Positions 1,703-11,527 of a DNA stretch of 64,000 bases are shown here, in pieces. The position numbers and the translations under genes were made by a program. Position 1 is the stretch's first letter, and each line of letters begins with the position of its first letter. Source of the stretch: Escherichia coli (GTDB taxonomy: Bacteria; Pseudomonadota; Gammaproteobacteria; Enterobacterales; Enterobacteriaceae); the NCBI RefSeq assembly GCF_030013595.1, contig NZ_CP122768.1. One strand, written 5' to 3'. The notes below the pieces were generated by a model, which worked only from the letters and a program-made list of their open reading frames with translations, searched no databases and had not been told where the DNA came from.

Positions 1703-2275
1703 ATGCGTGGATTACGTCCGGCATTATCGACATTTATCTTTCTGTTATTGATTACTGGCGGCGTTTACCCCCTGCTAACCACCGCGCTGGGGCAATGGTG
1801 GTTTCCCTGGCAGGCCAACGGTTCGTTGATTCGTGAAGGTGATACGGTGCGCGGTTCGGCATTAATTGGGCAGAATTTTACCGGCAACGGCTATTTTCAT
1901 GGTCGCCCGTCGGCAACGGCAGAAATGCCCTATAATCCACAGGCTTCTGGCGGGAGCAATTTGGCGGTCAGTAACCCTGAGCTGGATAAACTAATAGCCG
2001 CACGCGTTGCTGCATTACGGGCCGCTAACCCGGATGCCAGCGCGAGCGTTCCGGTTGAACTGGTGACGGCATCGGCAAGCGGGCTGGACAATAACATCAC
2101 CCCGCAAGCGGCAGCCTGGCAGATCCCACGCGTGGCGAAAGCGCGTAATCTCAGCGTTGAACAGCTCACGCAACTGATCGCAAAATACAGCCAACAACCG
2201 CTGGTGAAATATATCGGCCAGCCGGTCGTCAACATTGTCGAACTCAATCTGGCGCTGGATAAGCTTGATGAATAA
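1703..2275 (+). CDS. kdpC: K+-transporting ATPase subunit C (190 aa)
   Basis: ORF track 1679..2275; start placed at internal ATG 1703 ([15 protein letters not shown]...) by match to KdpC N-terminus; overlaps kdpB stop. Confidence 0.9.
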
Positions 2276-4952
2276 CGAACCCTTACGTCCCGACCCCGAT
2301 CGTCTGCTGGAACAAACTGCCGCGCCGCATCGGGGGAAGCTGAAAGTTTTCTTCGGTGCCTGCGCAGGCGTCGGGAAGACCTGGGCGATGCTGGCAGAAG
2401 CCCAGCGACTGCGGGCGCAAGGGCTGGATATTGTGGTTGGCGTGGTAGAAACCCACGGGCGGAAAGATACCGCCGCAATGCTGGAAGGGCTGGCTGTTCT
2501 GCCGTTAAAACGCCAGGCGTACCGTGGGCGGCACATCAGCGAGTTTGATCTCGATGCCGCCCTCGCCCGCCGTCCGGCACTGATCTTAATGGACGAACTG
2601 GCGCACAGTAATGCGCCAGGTTCTCGTCATCCTAAACGCTGGCAGGACATCGAAGAGCTGCTGGAAGCTGGCATTGATGTTTTCACAACCGTCAACGTTC
2701 AGCATCTGGAAAGTCTGAATGATGTGGTCAGCGGCGTCACCGGAATTCAGGTACGGGAAACCGTGCCCGATCCTTTTTTCGATGCCGCCGACGACGTGGT
2801 GCTGGTGGACTTGCCCCCGGACGATCTGCGTCAACGGCTGAAAGAAGGTAAAGTCTATATTGCCGGGCAGGCGGAACGCGCCATTGAACATTTTTTTCGC
2901 AAAGGCAATCTGATCGCCCTGCGCGAACTGGCACTGCGCCGTACTGCCGATCGCGTAGATGAGCAAATGCGCGCCTGGCGGGGGCATCCTGGCGAAGAGA
3001 AAGTCTGGCACACGCGCGACGCGATCCTTTTATGCATCGGGCATAACACCGGCAGCGAAAAACTGGTCCGCGCGGCGGCGCGGCTGGCGTCACGGCTGGG
3101 TAGCGTCTGGCACGCGGTGTATGTTGAAACCCCTGCCCTGCATCGCTTACCAGAGAAAAAACGTCGGGCAATTCTCAGCGCCTTACGTCTGGCGCAGGAG
3201 CTGGGCGCAGAGACGGCAACACTTTCTGATCCAGCGGAAGAGAAAGCGATAGTGCGTTATGCCCGTGAACATAATCTCGGCAAGATTATTCTCGGTCGCC
3301 CAGCCTCGCGCCGCCGGTGGCGTCGGGAAACGTTTGCTGACCGACTGGCGCGCATCGCCCCCGATCTCGATCAGGTGCTGGTCGCGCTTGATGAACCACC
3401 CGCCCGCACGATAAACAACGCGCCGGATAGCCGCTCTTTTAAAGACAAGTGGCGGGTACAGATTCAGGGATGCGTGGTTGCCGCCGCGTTATGCGCCGTT
3501 ATCACCTTAATTGCCATGCAGTGGCTGATGGCGTTTGATGCCGCCAACCTGGTGATGCTGTACCTACTTGGCGTGGTGGTGGTGGCGCTATTTTATGGAC
3601 GCTGGCCTTCGGTGGTTGCTACCGTCATTAATGTGGTGAGTTTCGATCTCTTTTTTATCGCCCCACGCGGCACGCTCGCCGTCTCTGATGTGCAATATCT
3701 GCTGACCTTCGCGGTGATGTTAACCGTCGGGCTGGTGATCGGGAACCTTACTGCTGGCGTTCGTTATCAGGCGCGGGTAGCCCGTTACCGCGAGCAACGC
3801 ACACGGCACTTATATGAAATGTCGAAAGCTCTGGCGGTGGGCCGCAGTCCGCAGGACATCGCCGCCACCAGCGAACAATTTATTGCCTCCACGTTTCATG
3901 CCCGCAGTCAGGTGTTGTTGCCCGATGACAACGGTAAATTGCAGCCGTTAACACATCCGCAAGGAATGACGCCGTGGGACGATGCCATCGCGCAGTGGAG
4001 TTTTGATAAAGGCCTGCCTGCGGGCGCGGGCACCGACACGTTACCCGGTGTACCGTACCAGATTTTGCCGCTAAAAAGCGGCGAGAAAACCTACGGGCTG
4101 GTGGTGGTGGAACCGGGGAATCTGCGCCAGTTGATGATCCCGGAACAGCAACGCCTGCTGGAGACGTTTACGCTGTTAGTCGCCAATGCCCTTGAGCGGC
4201 TGACACTGACCGCCAGCGAAGAACAGGCGCGGATGGCAAGCGAACGAGAACAGATCCGCAACGCCCTGCTGGCGGCGCTTTCGCATGATTTACGCACGCC
4301 GCTTACGGTGCTGTTCGGTCAGGCAGAAATCTTAACGCTCGATCTGGCGAGCGAAGGATCGCCCCACGCCCGCCAGGCCAGCGAGATTCGTCAGCATGTG
4401 CTGAACACGACCCGACTGGTGAATAATCTACTGGATATGGCGCGAATTCAGTCCGGCGGCTTTAATTTGAAGAAAGAGTGGTTAACGCTGGAAGAAGTGG
4501 TCGGCAGCGCGCTGCAAATGCTGGAACCGGGTTTATCGTCGCCCATCAATCTTTCTCTGCCAGAACCGCTGACCTTAATCCACGTTGACGGGCCACTCTT
4601 TGAACGGGTGCTGATTAATCTGCTGGAGAACGCGGTGAAATACGCGGGGGCGCAGGCCGAAATTGGTATCGATGCCCACGTTGAGGGCGAGAAGCTACAA
4701 CTGGATGTCTGGGATAACGGCCCCGGTCTTCCGCCAGGCCAGGAGCAGACGATATTTGATAAGTTTGCTCGCGGGAATAAAGAGTCGGCGATACCGGGTG
4801 TCGGGCTTGGGCTGGCAATTTGTCGGGCGATTGTGGATGTACACGGCGGCACCATTACCGCGTTCAACCGACCGGAAGGTGGTGCCTGTTTTCGTGTTAC
4901 ACTTCCCCAGCAAACTGCCCCTGAACTTGAAGAATTTCATGAGGATATGTGA
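2268..4952 (+). CDS. kdpD: Sensor histidine kinase KdpD (894 aa)
   Basis: Start at ATG 2268 ([12 protein letters not shown]...) overlapping kdpC stop; Walker-A-like GACAGVGKT, four TM helices, H-box LSHDLRTPL, ATPase G-box [11 protein letters not shown]. Confidence 0.95.
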
Positions 4953-5626
4953 CAAACGTTCTGATTGTTGAAGATGAACAGGCTATTCGTCGCTTTCTGC
5001 GCACGGCGCTGGAGGGCGACGGTATGCGCGTCTTTGAGGCCGAAACGCTGCAACGCGGCTTGCTGGAAGCGGCAACCCGTAAGCCAGATTTGATTATTCT
5101 CGATCTCGGCCTGCCCGATGGTGATGGGATTGAGTTTATCCGCGACCTGCGCCAGTGGAGCGCGGTGCCGGTGATTGTGCTTTCCGCACGTAGCGAAGAG
5201 AGCGACAAAATCGCCGCGCTGGATGCCGGAGCGGATGATTATCTGAGTAAGCCGTTTGGCATTGGCGAATTGCAGGCCCGTCTGCGCGTCGCATTACGCC
5301 GCCACTCTGCCACCACCACGCCCGATCCGCTGGTGAAATTTTCCAATGTTACCGTCGATTTAGCGGCTCGAGTGATCCATCGCGGTGAGGAAGAGGTGCA
5401 TCTCACCCCGATTGAGTTCCGCCTGCTGGCGGTGTTGCTTAATAATGCGGGAAAAGTGCTCACCCAGCGCCAGCTCCTTAACCAGGTGTGGGGGCCAAAC
5501 GCGGTCGAACACAGTCATTATTTGCGTATTTATATGGGGCATCTGCGACAAAAACTGGAACAGGATCCCGCCCGCCCACGCCATTTCATTACTGAAACCG
5601 GTATTGGGTATCGGTTTATGCTTTGA
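4949..5626 (+). CDS. kdpE: OmpR-family response regulator KdpE (225 aa), GTG start
   Basis: ORF 4949..5626 overlapping kdpD stop (ATGTGA); receiver domain with IILDLGLPDGDG; winged-helix C-terminus. Confidence 0.95.
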   Translation: MTNVLIVEDEQAIRRFLRTALEGDGMRVFEAETLQRGLLEAATRKPDLIILDLGLPDGDGIEFIRDLRQWSAVPVIVLSARSEESDKIAALDAGADDYLSKPFGIGELQARLRVALRRHSATTTPDPLVKFSNVTVDLAARVIHRGEEEVHLTPIEFRLLAVLLNNAGKVLTQRQLLNQVWGPNAVEHSHYLRIYMGHLRQKLEQDPARPRHFITETGIGYRFML

Positions 5627-5670
5627 ATTGTTATTCAATAAATTCGCTTTAATAGTGATTAATTTATTAT

Positions 5671-5706
5671 TAAACCTGCTCCAAATATTATTATTTGGCA
5701 GGTTTA
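5671..5706 (+). terminator. Hairpin downstream of kdpE (candidate terminator)
   Basis: Inverted repeat TAAACCTGC...GCAGGTTTA followed by ATTTCTT. Confidence 0.45.
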
Positions 5707-5900
5707 ATTTCTTAACGCAAATATAAAACACGAAATTACAACATTTAAGTAACAAAACAGCATCTAATATGGCAATATTCATAATTAATGATTTATTATC
5801 TGGGGTATGATCGTTTTTTGTTGATCTTCTTCACAGATTATAGCCATTTCATGGATAGAATAACTCTACCTTCAACTGACACAGCAAGAGGTAAAGGTAA

Positions 5901-6005
5901 ATGGAAAATAATAACCGCTTAATGCCTCATATAAGGCGGACAACCCATATCATGAAGTTTGCCCATCGTAATAGTTTTGACTTTCATTTCTTTAATGCCC
6001 GCTAG
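5901..6005 (+). CDS. speFL: speF leader arrest peptide SpeFL (34 codons)
   Basis: ATG at 5901 preceded by AAGAGG/AAAGG; hand translation MENNNRLMPHIRRTTHIMKFAHRNSFDFHFFNAR then TAG at 6003-6005; about 300 nt upstream of speF; too short for the ORF track. Confidence 0.8.
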   Translation: MENNNRLMPHIRRTTHIMKFAHRNSFDFHFFNAR

Positions 6006-6315
6006 TCTTCTGACTAAAGGGCACCCCAACGTACAGGTCTCCCTGACTTTAAGCATTACAGGTTAATACCTGTATCCCTCGGTGCTCATATACTGCTAAC
6101 CCTTTTAAACTCTAAATAATTCGAGTCGCAGCACTTGCAACTTGAGGTATGACGAGTATAGCCAGTTACCGGGCTGGTCTGGGTTATTGCATCTACAAAA
6201 AGCAAACTACTGATTTATTTATCAGCGGTGGGGTTTTGCTTTTTTTCCGGCGTGATCGATTTCTCCTTTGAGAAATTGAGGACCTGCTATTACCTGAAAT
6301 AAAGAGATGAACAAA

Positions 6316-8514
6316 ATGTCAGAATTAAAAATTGCCGTTAGTCGTTCTTGCCCGGATTGTTTTTCAACTCATCGCACATGCGTGAATATTGACGAAAGTA
6401 ATTATATTGACGTTGCCGCCATTATTTTATCGGTCAATGATGTGGAACGTGGAAAACTCGATGAAATAGACGCTACTGGCTATGGCATTCCTGTTTTTAT
6501 TGCAACGGAAAATGAAGAACGTGTACCCGCAGAATATCTGCCACGTATTTCTGGTGTCTTCGAACATTGCGAATCACGTAAAGAGTTTTATGGACGTCAG
6601 TTAGAAACCGCTGCAAGCCATTATGAAACGCAACTGCGCCCGCCCTTCTTCCGCGCACTGGTCGATTATGTTAATCAGGGCAATAGTGCTTTTGACTGCC
6701 CTGGTCATCAGGGGGGTGAGTTTTTCCGTCGCCATCCGGCAGGCAATCAGTTCGTGGAATACTTTGGTGAGGCGCTGTTCCGTGCTGACTTGTGCAACGC
6801 CGACGTAGCGATGGGCGATCTGCTGATTCACGAAGGCGCGCCATGCATTGCACAGCAACATGCGGCTAAAGTCTTTAATGCCGATAAAACCTATTTCGTT
6901 TTAAACGGTACTTCATCTTCTAATAAAGTGGTCTTAAACGCATTGCTGACGCCGGGCGATCTGGTGTTGTTTGACCGCAATAACCATAAATCTAACCACC
7001 ACGGTGCGTTGCTACAGGCTGGCGCGACACCGGTTTATCTGGAAACCGCACGTAACCCGTATGGTTTTATCGGTGGTATTGACGCTCACTGTTTTGAAGA
7101 AAGTTACCTGCGTGAGCTGATTATAGAAGTTGCACCGCAGCGGGCAAAAGAGGCTCGTCCTTTCCGCCTCGCCGTTATTCAGCTAGGCACTTACGACGGT
7201 ACGATTTATAACGCCCGTCAGGTGGTGGATAAAATTGGTCATCTGTGTGACTACATCCTCTTTGACTCCGCATGGGTCGGCTATGAGCAGTTTATCCCGA
7301 TGATGGCGGACTGTTCACCACTGTTGCTGGATCTTAATGAGAACGATCCGGGTATTCTGGTTACGCAATCCGTACATAAACAGCAGGCTGGTTTTTCTCA
7401 AACTTCACAAATCCATAAAAAAGACAACCACATCAAAGGGCAACAGCGTTATGTACCGCACAAACGCATGAACAACGCCTTTATGATGCACGCCTCCACC
7501 AGCCCGTTCTATCCGCTGTTTGCCGCACTGGATATCAACGCCAAAATGCATGAAGGTGTCAGCGGTCGTAATATGTGGATGGATTGTGTGGTAAATGGCA
7601 TTAATGCCCGCAAACTGATCCTCGATAACTGTCAGCATATTCGTCCGTTCGTACCTGAACTGGTGGATGGTAAACCCTGGCAGTCGTATGAAACAGCGCA
7701 AATTGCGGTTGATCTGCGCTTCTTCCAGTTTGTACCAGGGGAACACTGGCATTCTTTTGAAGGCTATGCAGAGAATCAATACTTTGTTGATCCGTGCAAA
7801 CTGTTGCTGACAACCCCAGGTATTGATGCACGTAACGGCGAATATGAAGCGTTCGGTGTACCCGCGACGATTCTTGCTAATTTCCTGCGCGAAAATGGCG
7901 TAGTGCCGGAAAAATGCGATCTTAACTCCATCCTCTTCCTGCTGACTCCAGCAGAAGATATGGCCAAACTTCAGCAACTTGTTGCCCTGCTGGTACGCTT
8001 CGAAAAACTGCTGGAATCTGATGCGCCGCTGGCGGAAGTGCTACCTTCCATCTACAAACAGCATGAAGAGCGCTACGCCGGTTATACGCTTCGTCAGTTG
8101 TGCCAGGAAATGCATGATTTGTATGCCCGCCACAACGTGAAACAACTGCAAAAAGAGATGTTCCGTAAGGAACACTTCCCACGCGTCAGCATGAATCCGC
8201 AAGAAGCTAACTACGCCTATTTACGCGGTGAAGTGGAGCTGGTTCGTCTGCCGGATGCAGAAGGCCGTATCGCTGCCGAAGGTGCGCTTCCTTATCCTCC
8301 GGGTGTGCTGTGTGTTGTTCCGGGTGAAATCTGGGGTGGTGCTGTTTTGCGTTACTTCAGCGCTCTGGAAGAAGGGATCAACCTGCTGCCAGGTTTTGCA
8401 CCGGAGCTGCAGGGTGTCTATATCGAAGAACATGATGGTCGTAAGCAAGTTTGGTGCTATGTCATCAAGCCTCGTGATGCGCAAAGCACCCTGTTGAAAG
8501 GGGAAAAATTATGA
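6316..8514 (+). CDS. speF: Inducible ornithine decarboxylase SpeF (PLP-dependent)
   Basis: ORF track 6307..8514; start placed at ATG 6316 (MSELKIAV...) with AAGAG 10 nt upstream; ATG 6307 is the alternative; full-length match to SpeF. Confidence 0.92.
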   Translation: MSELKIAVSRSCPDCFSTHRTCVNIDESNYIDVAAIILSVNDVERGKLDEIDATGYGIPVFIATENEERVPAEYLPRISGVFEHCESRKEFYGRQLETAASHYETQLRPPFFRALVDYVNQGNSAFDCPGHQGGEFFRRHPAGNQFVEYFGEALFRADLCNADVAMGDLLIHEGAPCIAQQHAAKVFNADKTYFVLNGTSSSNKVVLNALLTPGDLVLFDRNNHKSNHHGALLQAGATPVYLETARNPYGFIGGIDAHCFEESYLRELIIEVAPQRAKEARPFRLAVIQLGTYDGTIYNARQVVDKIGHLCDYILFDSAWVGYEQFIPMMADCSPLLLDLNENDPGILVTQSVHKQQAGFSQTSQIHKKDNHIKGQQRYVPHKRMNNAFMMHASTSPFYPLFAALDINAKMHEGVSGRNMWMDCVVNGINARKLILDNCQHIRPFVPELVDGKPWQSYETAQIAVDLRFFQFVPGEHWHSFEGYAENQYFVDPCKLLLTTPGIDARNGEYEAFGVPATILANFLRENGVVPEKCDLNSILFLLTPAEDMAKLQQLVALLVRFEKLLESDAPLAEVLPSIYKQHEERYAGYTLRQLCQEMHDLYARHNVKQLQKEMFRKEHFPRVSMNPQEANYAYLRGEVELVRLPDAEGRIAAEGALPYPPGVLCVVPGEIWGGAVLRYFSALEEGINLLPGFAPELQGVYIEEHDGRKQVWCYVIKPRDAQSTLLKGEKL

Positions 8515-9830
8515 GTCAGGCTAAATCGAACAAAATGGGCGTCGTTCAGTTAACCATACTGACGATGGTCAACATGATGGGCTCCGGTATCATCATGCTG
8601 CCGACAAAGCTTGCCGAAGTTGGGACAATTTCAATTATCTCCTGGCTGGTGACAGCCGTAGGCTCAATGGCACTGGCATGGGCATTCGCAAAATGCGGTA
8701 TGTTCAGCCGTAAATCAGGCGGTATGGGCGGTTATGCGGAGTATGCTTTCGGTAAATCCGGGAACTTTATGGCGAACTATACCTACGGCGTCTCACTGCT
8801 AATTGCTAACGTCGCGATTGCTATTTCGGCGGTTGGTTACGGCACCGAACTGCTCGGCGCGAGTTTGTCGCCAGTGCAGATTGGTCTTGCGACCATCGGG
8901 GTGCTGTGGATTTGTACCGTGGCTAACTTTGGTGGTGCGCGCATTACCGGGCAAATCAGTAGCATTACCGTGTGGGGGGTCATTATTCCGGTGGTAGGCC
9001 TGTGCGTTATCGGCTGGTTCTGGTTTAGCCCGACGCTTTACGTTGATTCCTGGAATCCGCATCATGCACCGTTCTTCAGTGCGGTAGGTTCTTCCATCGC
9101 TATGACGCTGTGGGCTTTTCTTGGTCTGGAGTCTGCGTGTGCGAATACTGATGTAGTGGAAAACCCGGAACGTAATGTGCCAATCGCGGTACTCGGCGGT
9201 ACGTTAGGTGCGGCGGTGATTTATATCGTCTCCACCAACGTGATTGCAGGGATTGTGCCTAATATGGAGCTGGCAAATTCAACGGCACCATTTGGCCTGG
9301 CCTTCGCACAGATGTTCACGCCAGAAGTGGGTAAAGTCATTATGGCGCTGATGGTGATGTCCTGCTGCGGTTCGCTGCTTGGCTGGCAGTTCACCATTGC
9401 CCAGGTGTTTAAATCTTCATCTGATGAAGGCTACTTCCCTAAAATTTTCTCCCGTGTAACCAAAGTGGATGCACCGGTGCAGGGAATGTTGACCATTGTG
9501 ATTATCCAGAGCGGGTTGGCGCTGATGACGATTAGCCCGTCGCTAAACAGTCAGTTCAACGTGCTGGTTAACCTGGCCGTGGTGACCAATATCATTCCGT
9601 ATATTCTGTCAATGGCGGCATTAGTCATTATTCAGAAGGTCGCTAATGTGCCCCCCTCAAAAGCGAAAGTTGCAAACTTTGTTGCTTTTGTTGGCGCGAT
9701 GTACAGCTTTTATGCGCTGTACTCATCCGGGGAAGAAGCCATGCTATACGGTTCCATCGTGACCTTCCTCGGTTGGACACTGTATGGTCTGGTCTCACCA
9801 CGCTTTGAACTGAAAAATAAACACGGTTAA
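8511..9830 (+). CDS. potE: Putrescine-ornithine antiporter PotE (439 aa)
   Basis: ORF overlaps speF stop (ATGA); polytopic APC-family transporter; speF-potE operon order. Confidence 0.95.
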   Translation: MSQAKSNKMGVVQLTILTMVNMMGSGIIMLPTKLAEVGTISIISWLVTAVGSMALAWAFAKCGMFSRKSGGMGGYAEYAFGKSGNFMANYTYGVSLLIANVAIAISAVGYGTELLGASLSPVQIGLATIGVLWICTVANFGGARITGQISSITVWGVIIPVVGLCVIGWFWFSPTLYVDSWNPHHAPFFSAVGSSIAMTLWAFLGLESACANTDVVENPERNVPIAVLGGTLGAAVIYIVSTNVIAGIVPNMELANSTAPFGLAFAQMFTPEVGKVIMALMVMSCCGSLLGWQFTIAQVFKSSSDEGYFPKIFSRVTKVDAPVQGMLTIVIIQSGLALMTISPSLNSQFNVLVNLAVVTNIIPYILSMAALVIIQKVANVPPSKAKVANFVAFVGAMYSFYALYSSGEEAMLYGSIVTFLGWTLYGLVSPRFELKNKHG

Positions 9831-9841
9831 TTAAGCAAAGC

Positions 9842-9875
9842 AAAAAAGGGCGATCTTCCGACCGCCCTTTTTCTT
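9842..9875. terminator. Bidirectional rho-independent terminator between potE and pgm
   Basis: AAAAAGGGCG-loop-CGCCCTTTTT hairpin with A-run and T-run on either side, between convergent genes. Confidence 0.7.
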
Positions 9876-9886
9876 ATTTAATGTGT

Positions 9887-11527
9887 TTACGCGTTTTTCA
9901 GAACTTCGCTAACAATCTCAACCGCTTCTTTCTCGATCTGCTTGCGATGCTCTTCACCGAGGAAGCTTTCGCAATAAATCTTGTACGCGTCTTCCGTGCC
10001 TGACGGACGCGCGGCGAACCAGCCGTTGTCAGTCATCACTTTCAGACCGCCAATAGAAGCACCGTTGCCCGGAGCAGCAGTCAGGCGTGCGGTGATCGGG
10101 TCACCTGCCAGGGTGCTGGCGCTCACCATTTCCGGAGACAGCTTAGACAGCGCCGCTTTTTGTGCGGAAGTCGCAGCTGCCTGCAAACGGTTGTAGCTCG
10201 GCGCACCAAAGCGTTTTGCCAGTTCGTTGTAGTGTTCCTGCGGGTTCTTACCGGTGACCGCGGTGATTTCTGCCGCCAGCAGACACATAATGATACCGTC
10301 TTTATCGGTTGACCACGGCGTGCCGTCGAAACGCAGGAAGGAAGCCCCTGCGCTCTCTTCGCCGCCAAAGCCGAAGCTGCCGTCGAACAGACCATCAACA
10401 AACCATTTGAAACCTACCGGGACTTCTACCAGCTTACGGCCCAAGTCATTGACCACACGGTCGATCATCGCAGATGAAACCAGCGTTTTACCGACAGCAA
10501 CATCTTTGCCCCACTGCGGACGATGCTGGAACAGGTAGTTGATCGCCACCGCCAGGTAGTGGTTCGGATTCATCAAACCTGCCGGAGTGACGATACCGTG
10601 ACGGTCATAATCCGGGTCGTTAGCAAACGCCAGATCGAACTTATCACGCAGTGCCAGCAGACCCGCCATCGCACACTCGGAGGAGCAGTCCATACGGATC
10701 GCACCGTCTTTATCGAGGTGCATAAAGCGGAAGGTTTGATCGACCTGATCGTTAACGATGGTCAGGTTGAGGTTGTAATACTCGCCAATGCGCTTCCAGT
10801 ATTCGATACCGGAACCACCCAGCGGATCAACGCCCAGCGTCAGGCCCGCTTTCTGAATCGCCGCCATATCAACGATATCGGCCAGCCCTTCCACAAACGG
10901 CTGCACCAGATCCTGCTCTTTCACATGACCGGATGCCATCGCTTCGTCGAGGGAGATACGCTTCACGCCTTTCAGGCCATCAGCCAGCAGTGCGTTGGCT
11001 CTGTCTTCCACCACTTTAGTGACGTTGGTATCAGCCGGGCCACCATTTGGCGGATTGTACTTGATACCACCATCTTCCGGCGGGTTATGGGACGGTGTAA
11101 TCACGATACCGTCTGCCAGCGGGCCACCTTTTTTATTGTGAACCAGGATGGCATTGGAAACGGCAGGCGTCGGAGTGAAGCCATTGTTTTCCTGCACAAT
11201 AACATCTACGCCGTTCGCTGCCAGCACTTCCAGTACGGAAATGAACGCAGGCTCGGACAGGGCGTGAGTATCTTTACCCACATAGCAAGGGCCAGTGATG
11301 CCGTTTTTCGCACGTTCTTCAGCAATTGCCTGAGCGATCGCCAGAATGTGCGGCTCGTTAAAGCTGTGGCGCGCTGCACTGCCACGGTGACCGGAAGTAC
11401 CGAATTTCACCGCGTGCTCCGCATTCCCTGCTTCTGGTTTCAGTACATAATATTGCGCCGTCAGTTGGGCGACGTTAATCAAATCACTCTGTTGTGCAGG
11501 TTGGCCTGCACGATTGTGGATTGCCAT
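9887..11527 (-). CDS. pgm: Phosphoglucomutase (546 aa)
   Basis: ORF track 9887..11578; start at internal Met (MAIHNRAGQ...); active-site motif TPSHNP. Confidence 0.95.

Follow-up and report, generated by a model that had tools for sequence, protein, structure and literature searches.

In a 64,000-nt stretch of Escherichia coli DNA (RefSeq assembly GCF_030013595.1, contig NZ_CP122768.1; hereafter, the window), a very short open reading frame (ORF) precedes the ornithine decarboxylase gene speF. The question it raises is whether this frame is the gene for SpeFL, the leader peptide of the speF-potE operon, and whether this particular allele carries the elements through which the operon is controlled. 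SpeFL is a textbook example of a nascent peptide that, jointly with the ribosome, acts as a small-molecule sensor, and it controls the acid- and ornithine-induced synthesis of putrescine. A first-pass annotation made from the sequence had proposed that a 34-codon speFL lies upstream of speF and had pointed out that it falls below the size cutoff of the available ORF track.

Identity of the short reading frame upstream of speF

A program listing of ORFs of at least 20 aa contains, at positions 5901..6005 of the + strand, an ATG-started frame of 34 codons that encodes MENNNRLMPHIRRTTHIMKFAHRNSFDFHFFNAR and ends at a TAG stop codon (6003-6005). The hand translation of the first-pass annotation is in exact agreement with this listing, and a functional small ORF below the track cutoff was, in this case, recovered from sequence alone. 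The local gene order is kdpDE, speFL, speF-potE and pgm, with kdpD at 2235-4952, kdpE at 4949-5626, and pgm on the opposite strand. speFL is located directly upstream of speF-potE, within the 5' leader of the operon, and shares the + strand with the regulated gene speF (inducible ornithine decarboxylase; 6316..8514, as mapped from the RefSeq start in an identical record) and with the cotranscribed potE (putrescine-ornithine antiporter; 8511..9830, ORF listing and RefSeq record), in the same order as in K-12.

In a megablast search of 5,426 complete E. coli genomes, the segment 5627-6320 of the window was 100% identical to NZ_CP042899.1 and near-identical to thousands of other records, and the matched records carry the annotation "speFL: leader peptide SpeFL" beneath the alignment. 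The speFL coding sequence of the identical record (WP_001312672.1; 3275..3379 of the locus taken from it, equivalent to 5901..6005 of the window) has the same frame and the same ends, that is, the ORF, frame, start and stop that had been read from the sequence are those of an annotated gene. A phmmer search matched the peptide over its full length to the SpeFL chain of the cryo-EM structures 6TBV and 6TC3 in the PDB, with 32 of 34 residues identical (E=1.7e-18), and Pfam family PF10940 ("Leader peptide SpeFL"; DUF2618) matched it with E=2.2e-6. The speFL gene of K-12 MG1655 (b4803; YP_010051176.1; translation MENNSRTMPHIRRTTHIMKFAHRNSFDFHFFNAR) occupies the same place relative to kdpE and speF, shares 32 of 34 residues with the window peptide, and aligns with it codon for codon, which rules out a different frame or position for the K-12 leader. 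The RefSeq annotation, K-12 b4803, the PDB chain and the Pfam family all support the earlier proposal that the ORF encodes the ornithine-sensing arrest peptide of speF-potE. No NCBIfam HMM matched the peptide, which probably reflects the absence of a model for so short a sequence.

The length of the 34-aa ORF alone is not significant, given that as many as 93 ORFs of 20 aa or more overlap positions 4500-11000; its significance derives from homology and from the pattern of substitutions relative to the K-12 allele. The two speFL alleles differ at 15 of 105 nt (85.7% identity), and 12 of these 15 differences are at third codon positions, with 11 codons changed synonymously and two (codons 5 and 7) nonsynonymously. 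Read in either of the other two frames, both of which contain stops, the same nucleotide differences would change 12-13 residues. This substitution pattern, which is independent of the literature, indicates that the speFL frame is translated and that its amino acid sequence is conserved; as judged from these two alleles, the 11 synonymous versus two nonsynonymous codon changes show selection on the SpeFL peptide. The two replacements, S5N and T7L, account for the few N-terminal residues that the first-pass annotation had suspected of deviating from the K-12 peptide (MENNSRTMPH in K-12 vs. MENNNRLMPH in the window) and represent a genuine allele difference.

The same evidence bears on the possibility, which we consider extremely improbable, that the 34-codon frame is open merely by chance, or that the true gene is instead a 44-aa ORF at 5788..5922 (+ strand) that overlaps the speFL start. 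Short ORFs are plentiful in every frame, and many RefSeq records include the 44-aa ORF, as a "hypothetical protein" or as a "TonB-dependent receptor," depending on the genome. However, purifying selection is seen on the speFL frame only, and direct experiments back the speFL orthologs (10.1101/604074; PMC6386406), whereas the 44-aa ORF contains stops in the K-12 allele, has no NCBIfam match, bears two contradictory automatic names, and begins upstream of the putative transcription start of the operon. Given the match to the SpeFL chain in the PDB and the substitution pattern, both readings were rejected; the annotation of the 44-aa ORF as a gene is probably spurious.

The ORF at 5901..6005 is thus almost certainly speFL, the leader ORF of speF-potE that encodes a cis-acting, ornithine-sensing ribosome-arrest peptide. 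The gene is already known, with the same sequence present in RefSeq and the mechanism covered in a recent review of Rho-dependent termination; its annotation in thousands of genomes makes the finding a correct but ordinary one.

Sensor, rare codons and effector of the encoded peptide

In the K-12 peptide, the sensor domain is an N-terminal hairpin of residues 1-13, with Pro9 and the motif HIRRXXH (residues 10-16) as its characteristic features (10.1101/604074). The corresponding ornithine-sensor core of the window allele, Pro9 followed by H10-I11-R12-R13-T14-T15-H16, is encoded at 5925..5948 (+ strand), and codons 10-14 are identical to those of K-12. The motif HIRRxxH noticed in the first-pass annotation is indeed present, in the form HIRRTTH (codons 10-16, 5928-5948), as is the C-terminal FHFFNAR. 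Within the motif, the rare Arg codons 12 and 13 (AGG, 5934-5936; CGG, 5937-5939; + strand) are unchanged between the two alleles despite the 11 synonymous changes elsewhere in the gene. The functional importance of both the sensor residues and the rare codons has been reported (10.1101/604074; PMC6386406).

The effector domain (residues 14-34; 5940..6002, + strand), which includes Phe20, Phe26, Phe28, Phe30, Phe31, Asn32, Ala33 and Arg34, is identical to that of K-12 at the protein level, its coding stretch having accumulated nine synonymous changes and no amino acid change. Altogether, residues 8-34 are the same as in K-12, and the stop codon directly after residue 34 is, as in K-12, UAG, which is read by RF1. 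All residues that are required according to mutational analysis (H10, I11, R12, R13, H16, F26, F28, F30 and F31; 10.1101/604074) are present in the window peptide, together with P9, F20 and N32, and the residues that make contact with uL4 and 23S rRNA, E2 and N3, are retained as well. The identity of the ORF and the intactness of its sequence elements are demonstrated by these comparisons.

Ribosome occupancy of the K-12 and Salmonella orthologs has been shown by toeprinting, cryo-EM and lacZ fusions (10.1101/604074; PMC6386406), and for the K-12 peptide, an ornithine-dependent, puromycin-resistant arrest at codons 33/34 that induces speF has been measured (10.1101/604074). By analogy, given the identity of 32 of 34 residues and the presence of all mutationally defined ones, the N5/L7 variant encoded in the window would be expected to arrest in an ornithine-dependent manner as well. 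The two replaced residues are not among the listed contacts with the ribosome or ornithine (E2, N3, P9, H10, R12, R13, H16 and others; 10.1101/604074). The N-terminal hairpin is nevertheless not irrelevant, because deletion of residues 1-7 abolishes stalling (10.1101/604074).

Leader RNA and the published model of control

No sigma-70 site was called on the + strand by a consensus promoter scan, the best -35-like hexamer being TTCACA (5830-5835), with 20-nt spacing, and the assignment of a promoter for the speF operon therefore draws on conservation and on analogy with Salmonella. The candidate -10 hexamer is TAGAAT (5856..5861, + strand), and the window, K-12 and CFT073 alleles all share the block TGGATAGAATA without change, within a spacer that is otherwise only ~42-67% identical. 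In Salmonella, the mapped transcription start places the AUG of the orthologous leader ORF, orf34, at +32 (PMC6386406); the weakly supported candidate hexamer would imply a start near 5868-5870 in the window, which would likewise place the speFL AUG at ~+32. The ribosome-binding region of speFL (5886..5897, + strand), as read from the sequence, consists of AAGAGG (5886-5891, 9 nt before the ATG) and AAAGG (5893-5897, 3 nt before it), in line with the good ribosome-binding site that had been claimed for the ORF; the equivalent in the K-12 allele is AGGAAAGG.

Around the speFL stop codon, the + strand RNA is predicted to fold into a hairpin (5996..6023) that corresponds to the one at which RNA polymerase pauses in the published model. 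Its predicted energy is -15.8 kcal/mol (z=-5.3; none of 200 shuffled sequences folded as well), compared with -15.2 kcal/mol for the K-12 equivalent, and nine of its 10 pairs are the same in K-12. A match to the consensus pause element G-11 G-10 Y-1 G+1, which is named in the K-12 study (10.1101/604074), can be read by eye at 6020..6031 on the + strand (G6020, G6021, C6030 and G6031) and is found in K-12 too; as a short pattern that is common by chance, it is only consistent with pausing. The 3' end of a Rho-terminated short transcript would be expected at ~6030, for a length of ~161 nt if transcription starts near 5870; in Salmonella, the short RNA was measured at 157 nt (PMC6386406).

A candidate rut site, a C-rich and G-poor stretch with C/G ratios of 1.4-2.2 in 60-nt windows, extends over 5941..6140 (+ strand), running from the 3' half of speFL into the first part of the leader; the published models place a rut site across the 3' end of speFL (10.1101/604074). 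The scan for intrinsic terminators found none on the + strand of 5500-6500, and this result, together with the excess of C over G across 5941-6140, fits Rho-dependent termination, the mode of termination reported for the speFL orthologs (10.1101/604074; PMC6386406). An attenuator that responds to tRNA charging, of the trpL or hisL type, in which a series of regulatory codons is coupled to alternative terminator and antiterminator hairpins, was considered and rejected, there being no + strand intrinsic terminator in 5500-6500 and just two Arg codons.

Two further hairpins are predicted on the + strand 3' of the stop-codon hairpin. The first (6031-6047) is unchanged in K-12. In the second (UACAGGU-UAAU-ACCUGUA; 6057..6074), six pairs are unchanged relative to K-12 and one shows a compensatory U-A to C-G swap (6063/6068); it is probably the counterpart of the "DS" hairpin to which a role has been ascribed in Salmonella (PMC6386406). 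Alignment gaps delimit a 51-nt leader segment (6105..6155, + strand) that the K-12 allele lacks and CFT073 shares; it is found a single time in the window and is predicted to form a hairpin of its own (6109-6157). An Rfam search over 5400-6700 returned no family above threshold; the sole subthreshold match, to isrH (6104-6160; 17.3 bits vs. a gathering score of 45), overlaps this segment and was treated as noise. Farther downstream, the leader contains an A/T-rich inverted repeat (6197-6244; AAAAAGCAAA ... TTTGCTTTTT; 10 nt, 100% complementary, 28-nt spacing) followed by a T run, which is kept in K-12 and was not called by the terminator scan.

The minimum free energy (MFE) fold of 5870-6345 contains a long-range helix between the 3' part of speFL and the start of speF. 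Its predicted 5' arm covers speFL codons 24-32 (5972..5994, + strand), and the 3' arm (6300..6327, + strand) covers the speF Shine-Dalgarno sequence (AAGAG, 6302-6306) and the start codon at 6316. The helix comprises 22 pairs, including an inverted repeat (I1) of 12 nt with 92% complementarity, and its duplex energy is predicted at -19.5 kcal/mol vs. -12.3 ± 3.0 kcal/mol for shuffled sequences; the homologous helix in Salmonella has been validated by compensatory mutations (PMC6386406). In K-12, synonymous U-to-C changes in speFL break four of the 22 pairs (four A-C mismatches), the duplex energy is -9.0 kcal/mol, as calculated for a shorter segment than the one used for the window, and the MFE fold pairs the speF Shine-Dalgarno region elsewhere. 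As to the start of speF itself, the program-called ORF begins at ATG 6307 (735 aa, MNKMSELK...), and RefSeq and K-12 use ATG 6316 (732 aa); ATG 6307 sits within the Shine-Dalgarno-like AAGAGATG and was created by a 2-nt insertion relative to K-12.

The same elements have been described for orf34 of Salmonella Typhimurium (Ben-Zvi et al. 2019; PMC6386406), a 34-codon speF leader ORF with AGG-CGG at codons 12/13, the translation of which blocks Rho termination just past a stop-codon hairpin. The DS hairpin comes after this hairpin, and a long-range helix connects the 3' end of the ORF with the speF ribosome-binding site. By its published description, on which this comparison is based, orf34 differs from the window allele in having a UGA stop, an AGGA Shine-Dalgarno sequence and a longer leader, with the speF AUG at +516, ~379 nt after the ORF.

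In the model published for K-12 and Salmonella, transcription begins ~30 nt upstream of speFL, and the hairpin around the speFL stop codon is where RNA polymerase pauses. When ornithine is low, the first ribosome terminates at the UAG and departs, exposing the C-rich rut across the 3' end of speFL, and Rho, loading on this exposed RNA, ends transcription ~25 nt past the stop; the ribosomes that follow are held back by the rare AGG-CGG codons 12/13. When ornithine is high, a single molecule of it is caught in the exit tunnel, where the sensor hairpin formed by Pro9 and HIRRxxH faces 23S rRNA. The Phe-rich effector domain becomes compacted, U2585 is displaced, and RF1 is unable to release the peptide. 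The stalled ribosomes mask the rut, allowing transcription to proceed into speF-potE, and translation of the 3' end of speFL opens the long-range helix in which the speF ribosome-binding site is otherwise hidden. Under this model, then, speF-potE is expressed because stalled ribosomes both hide the rut and open the RBS-sequestering helix. For the window allele, orthology suggests that the same mechanism operates, including ribosome stalling, dependence on Rho and induction of speF.

The closest mechanistic analog is TnaC, the tryptophan-sensing leader peptide of tnaCAB, which follows the same logic, in that a free amino acid is trapped in the exit tunnel, release at the stop codon is blocked, and the stalled ribosome masks a rut and prevents Rho termination, as in the SpeFL model. 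Nevertheless, TnaC is not a member of the SpeFL family, given its unrelated sequence, a different ligand (tryptophan), a different tunnel pocket, and the involvement of RF2 at UGA rather than RF1 at UAG. In contrast, the ORF in the window qualifies as a SpeFL family member in all respects that could be tested.

A further possibility is that speFL serves mainly or additionally as a sensor of arginine supply. According to this proposal, scarce arginine would cause ribosomes to pause at the rare Arg codons 12/13, yielding an RNase G-resistant leader fold, and ample arginine would permit uninterrupted translation, yielding an unstable leader structure. The mechanism has been demonstrated for Salmonella orf34 (PMC6386406), and the window retains AGG-CGG while 11 other codons drifted synonymously and is predicted to form the stop-codon hairpin, the DS-like hairpin and the long-range helix. 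For E. coli, however, the proposal follows by analogy with Salmonella, and the central "ring-like" region of the leader differs greatly in length (intergenic distance of 379 nt in Salmonella, 310 nt in the window and 257 nt in K-12), and the RNase G-sensitive structure may accordingly not have been retained. The rare codons have also been accounted for differently, as a means of spacing ribosomes so that the rut is exposed (Herrero del Valle et al., 10.1101/604074). We regard an arginine-responsive role as a real possibility, if a somewhat less than even one, and as an extra layer acting on the same element, which may apply in addition to the ornithine response, rather than as an exclusive alternative to it.

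Two alleles of the speF control region in E. coli

The K-12 gene resembles that of the window in locus, strand, number of codons (34), UAG stop, HIRRTTH with AGG-CGG, Phe-rich effector and hairpins. It differs in the two replaced residues (S5N and T7L), at 15 of 105 nt, and in its shorter leader (257 nt from speFL to speF vs. 310 nt in the window), which lacks the 51-nt hairpin of 6105-6155 and in which the 3' end of speFL is predicted to pair less strongly with the speF ribosome-binding site. When the 5,426 complete E. coli genomes were searched by megablast with 131 nt around speFL, the window-type allele was found in ~3,346, including 2,275 with ≥99% identity, and a query derived from the K-12 allele found the K-12-type allele in a further ~1,703, with up to ~377 genomes matching neither query. 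With no exact 28-nt word in common between the two alleles, the window query misses that of K-12; absence of the gene from the genomes beyond the 3,346 was accordingly rejected once the K-12 query had recovered the further 1,703.

For comparison across species, we used the 14 SpeFL-like sequences that phmmer retrieved when run exhaustively against 1.84 billion representative proteins. Most of these 14 representatives start with MENNNR, and position 7 is occupied by L, F, A or K. Together with the genome counts, this identifies the window allele as the majority form in E. coli and N5 as the family consensus. In these sequence sets, the S5/T7 peptide of K-12 is the minority form, and the window allele is nearer the cross-species consensus.

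Compared with K-12, the window contains a mosaic segment of ~2 kb (5330-7400), centered on the speF control region, that is far more divergent than its flanks. Identity to K-12 is 99-100% in kdpE before ~5330, drops to 42% in the kdpE-speFL spacer, and amounts to 86% in speFL, 67% in the leader (gaps counted) and 84% in the first 485 nt of speF, before returning to ≥98% beyond ~7400. Most of the length difference between the two leaders, 310 nt vs. 257 nt, comes from the 51-nt segment at 6105-6155. Given the longer leader, the extra 51-nt hairpin and the low identity of the intergenic region (~67%, including gaps), the quantitative behavior of the window allele may differ from that of K-12.

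One specific form of this difference would be a shift in the ornithine threshold or in the basal level of expression, caused by S5N, T7L, the 51-nt insertion and the stronger RBS-sequestering helix. In its favor, the two allele classes (~3,346 and ~1,703 of 5,426 genomes) are deeply diverged, divergence peaks over the control region within flanks that are 98-100% identical, the K-12 allele lacks four of the 22 helix pairs (duplex energy of -9.0 kcal/mol, for the shorter K-12 segment, vs. -19.5 kcal/mol), and residues 1-7 are required for arrest (10.1101/604074). However, residues 5 and 7 lie outside the listed contacts with the ribosome and ornithine, the key elements are kept in both alleles, and the energy differences are predictions made on two sequences. 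Such a shift, as far as it can be gauged from sequence, appears unlikely.

A third form of the locus is found in CFT073 (NC_004431.1), in which speFL (5996-6037 of the locus taken from this genome, equivalent to 5901-6005 of the window) carries a 63-nt in-frame deletion with AATA microhomology at its flanks. The deletion leaves a 13-codon ORF, MENSFDFHFFNAR, without the HIRRxxH sensor, and speFL is unannotated in this genome. A 42-nt query spanning the junction matched one of the 5,426 complete genomes, and the deletion is therefore a peculiarity of this strain or of its assembly; it could be an assembly error. If real, this model uropathogen should not induce speF with ornithine.

A full-text search of the literature for "speFL" returned no title or abstract on an allele dimorphism. 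The allele analyzed here adds no new biology to speFL itself, and its modest added value lies in the status of K-12: the sequence behind all structural and biochemical work represents the minority allele in E. coli, for both the peptide and the leader. It is conceivable, albeit still less likely than a simple shift in threshold or basal level, that two old, deeply diverged speF control modules are maintained in E. coli, perhaps with different thresholds of induction by ornithine or acid. Such modules would differ in the promoter region, in N5/L7 vs. S5/T7, in leader length and in the strength of the RBS helix, within a nearly identical backbone, and, if they exist, would constitute a naturally occurring regulatory polymorphism in a metabolite sensor that is based on the ribosome.
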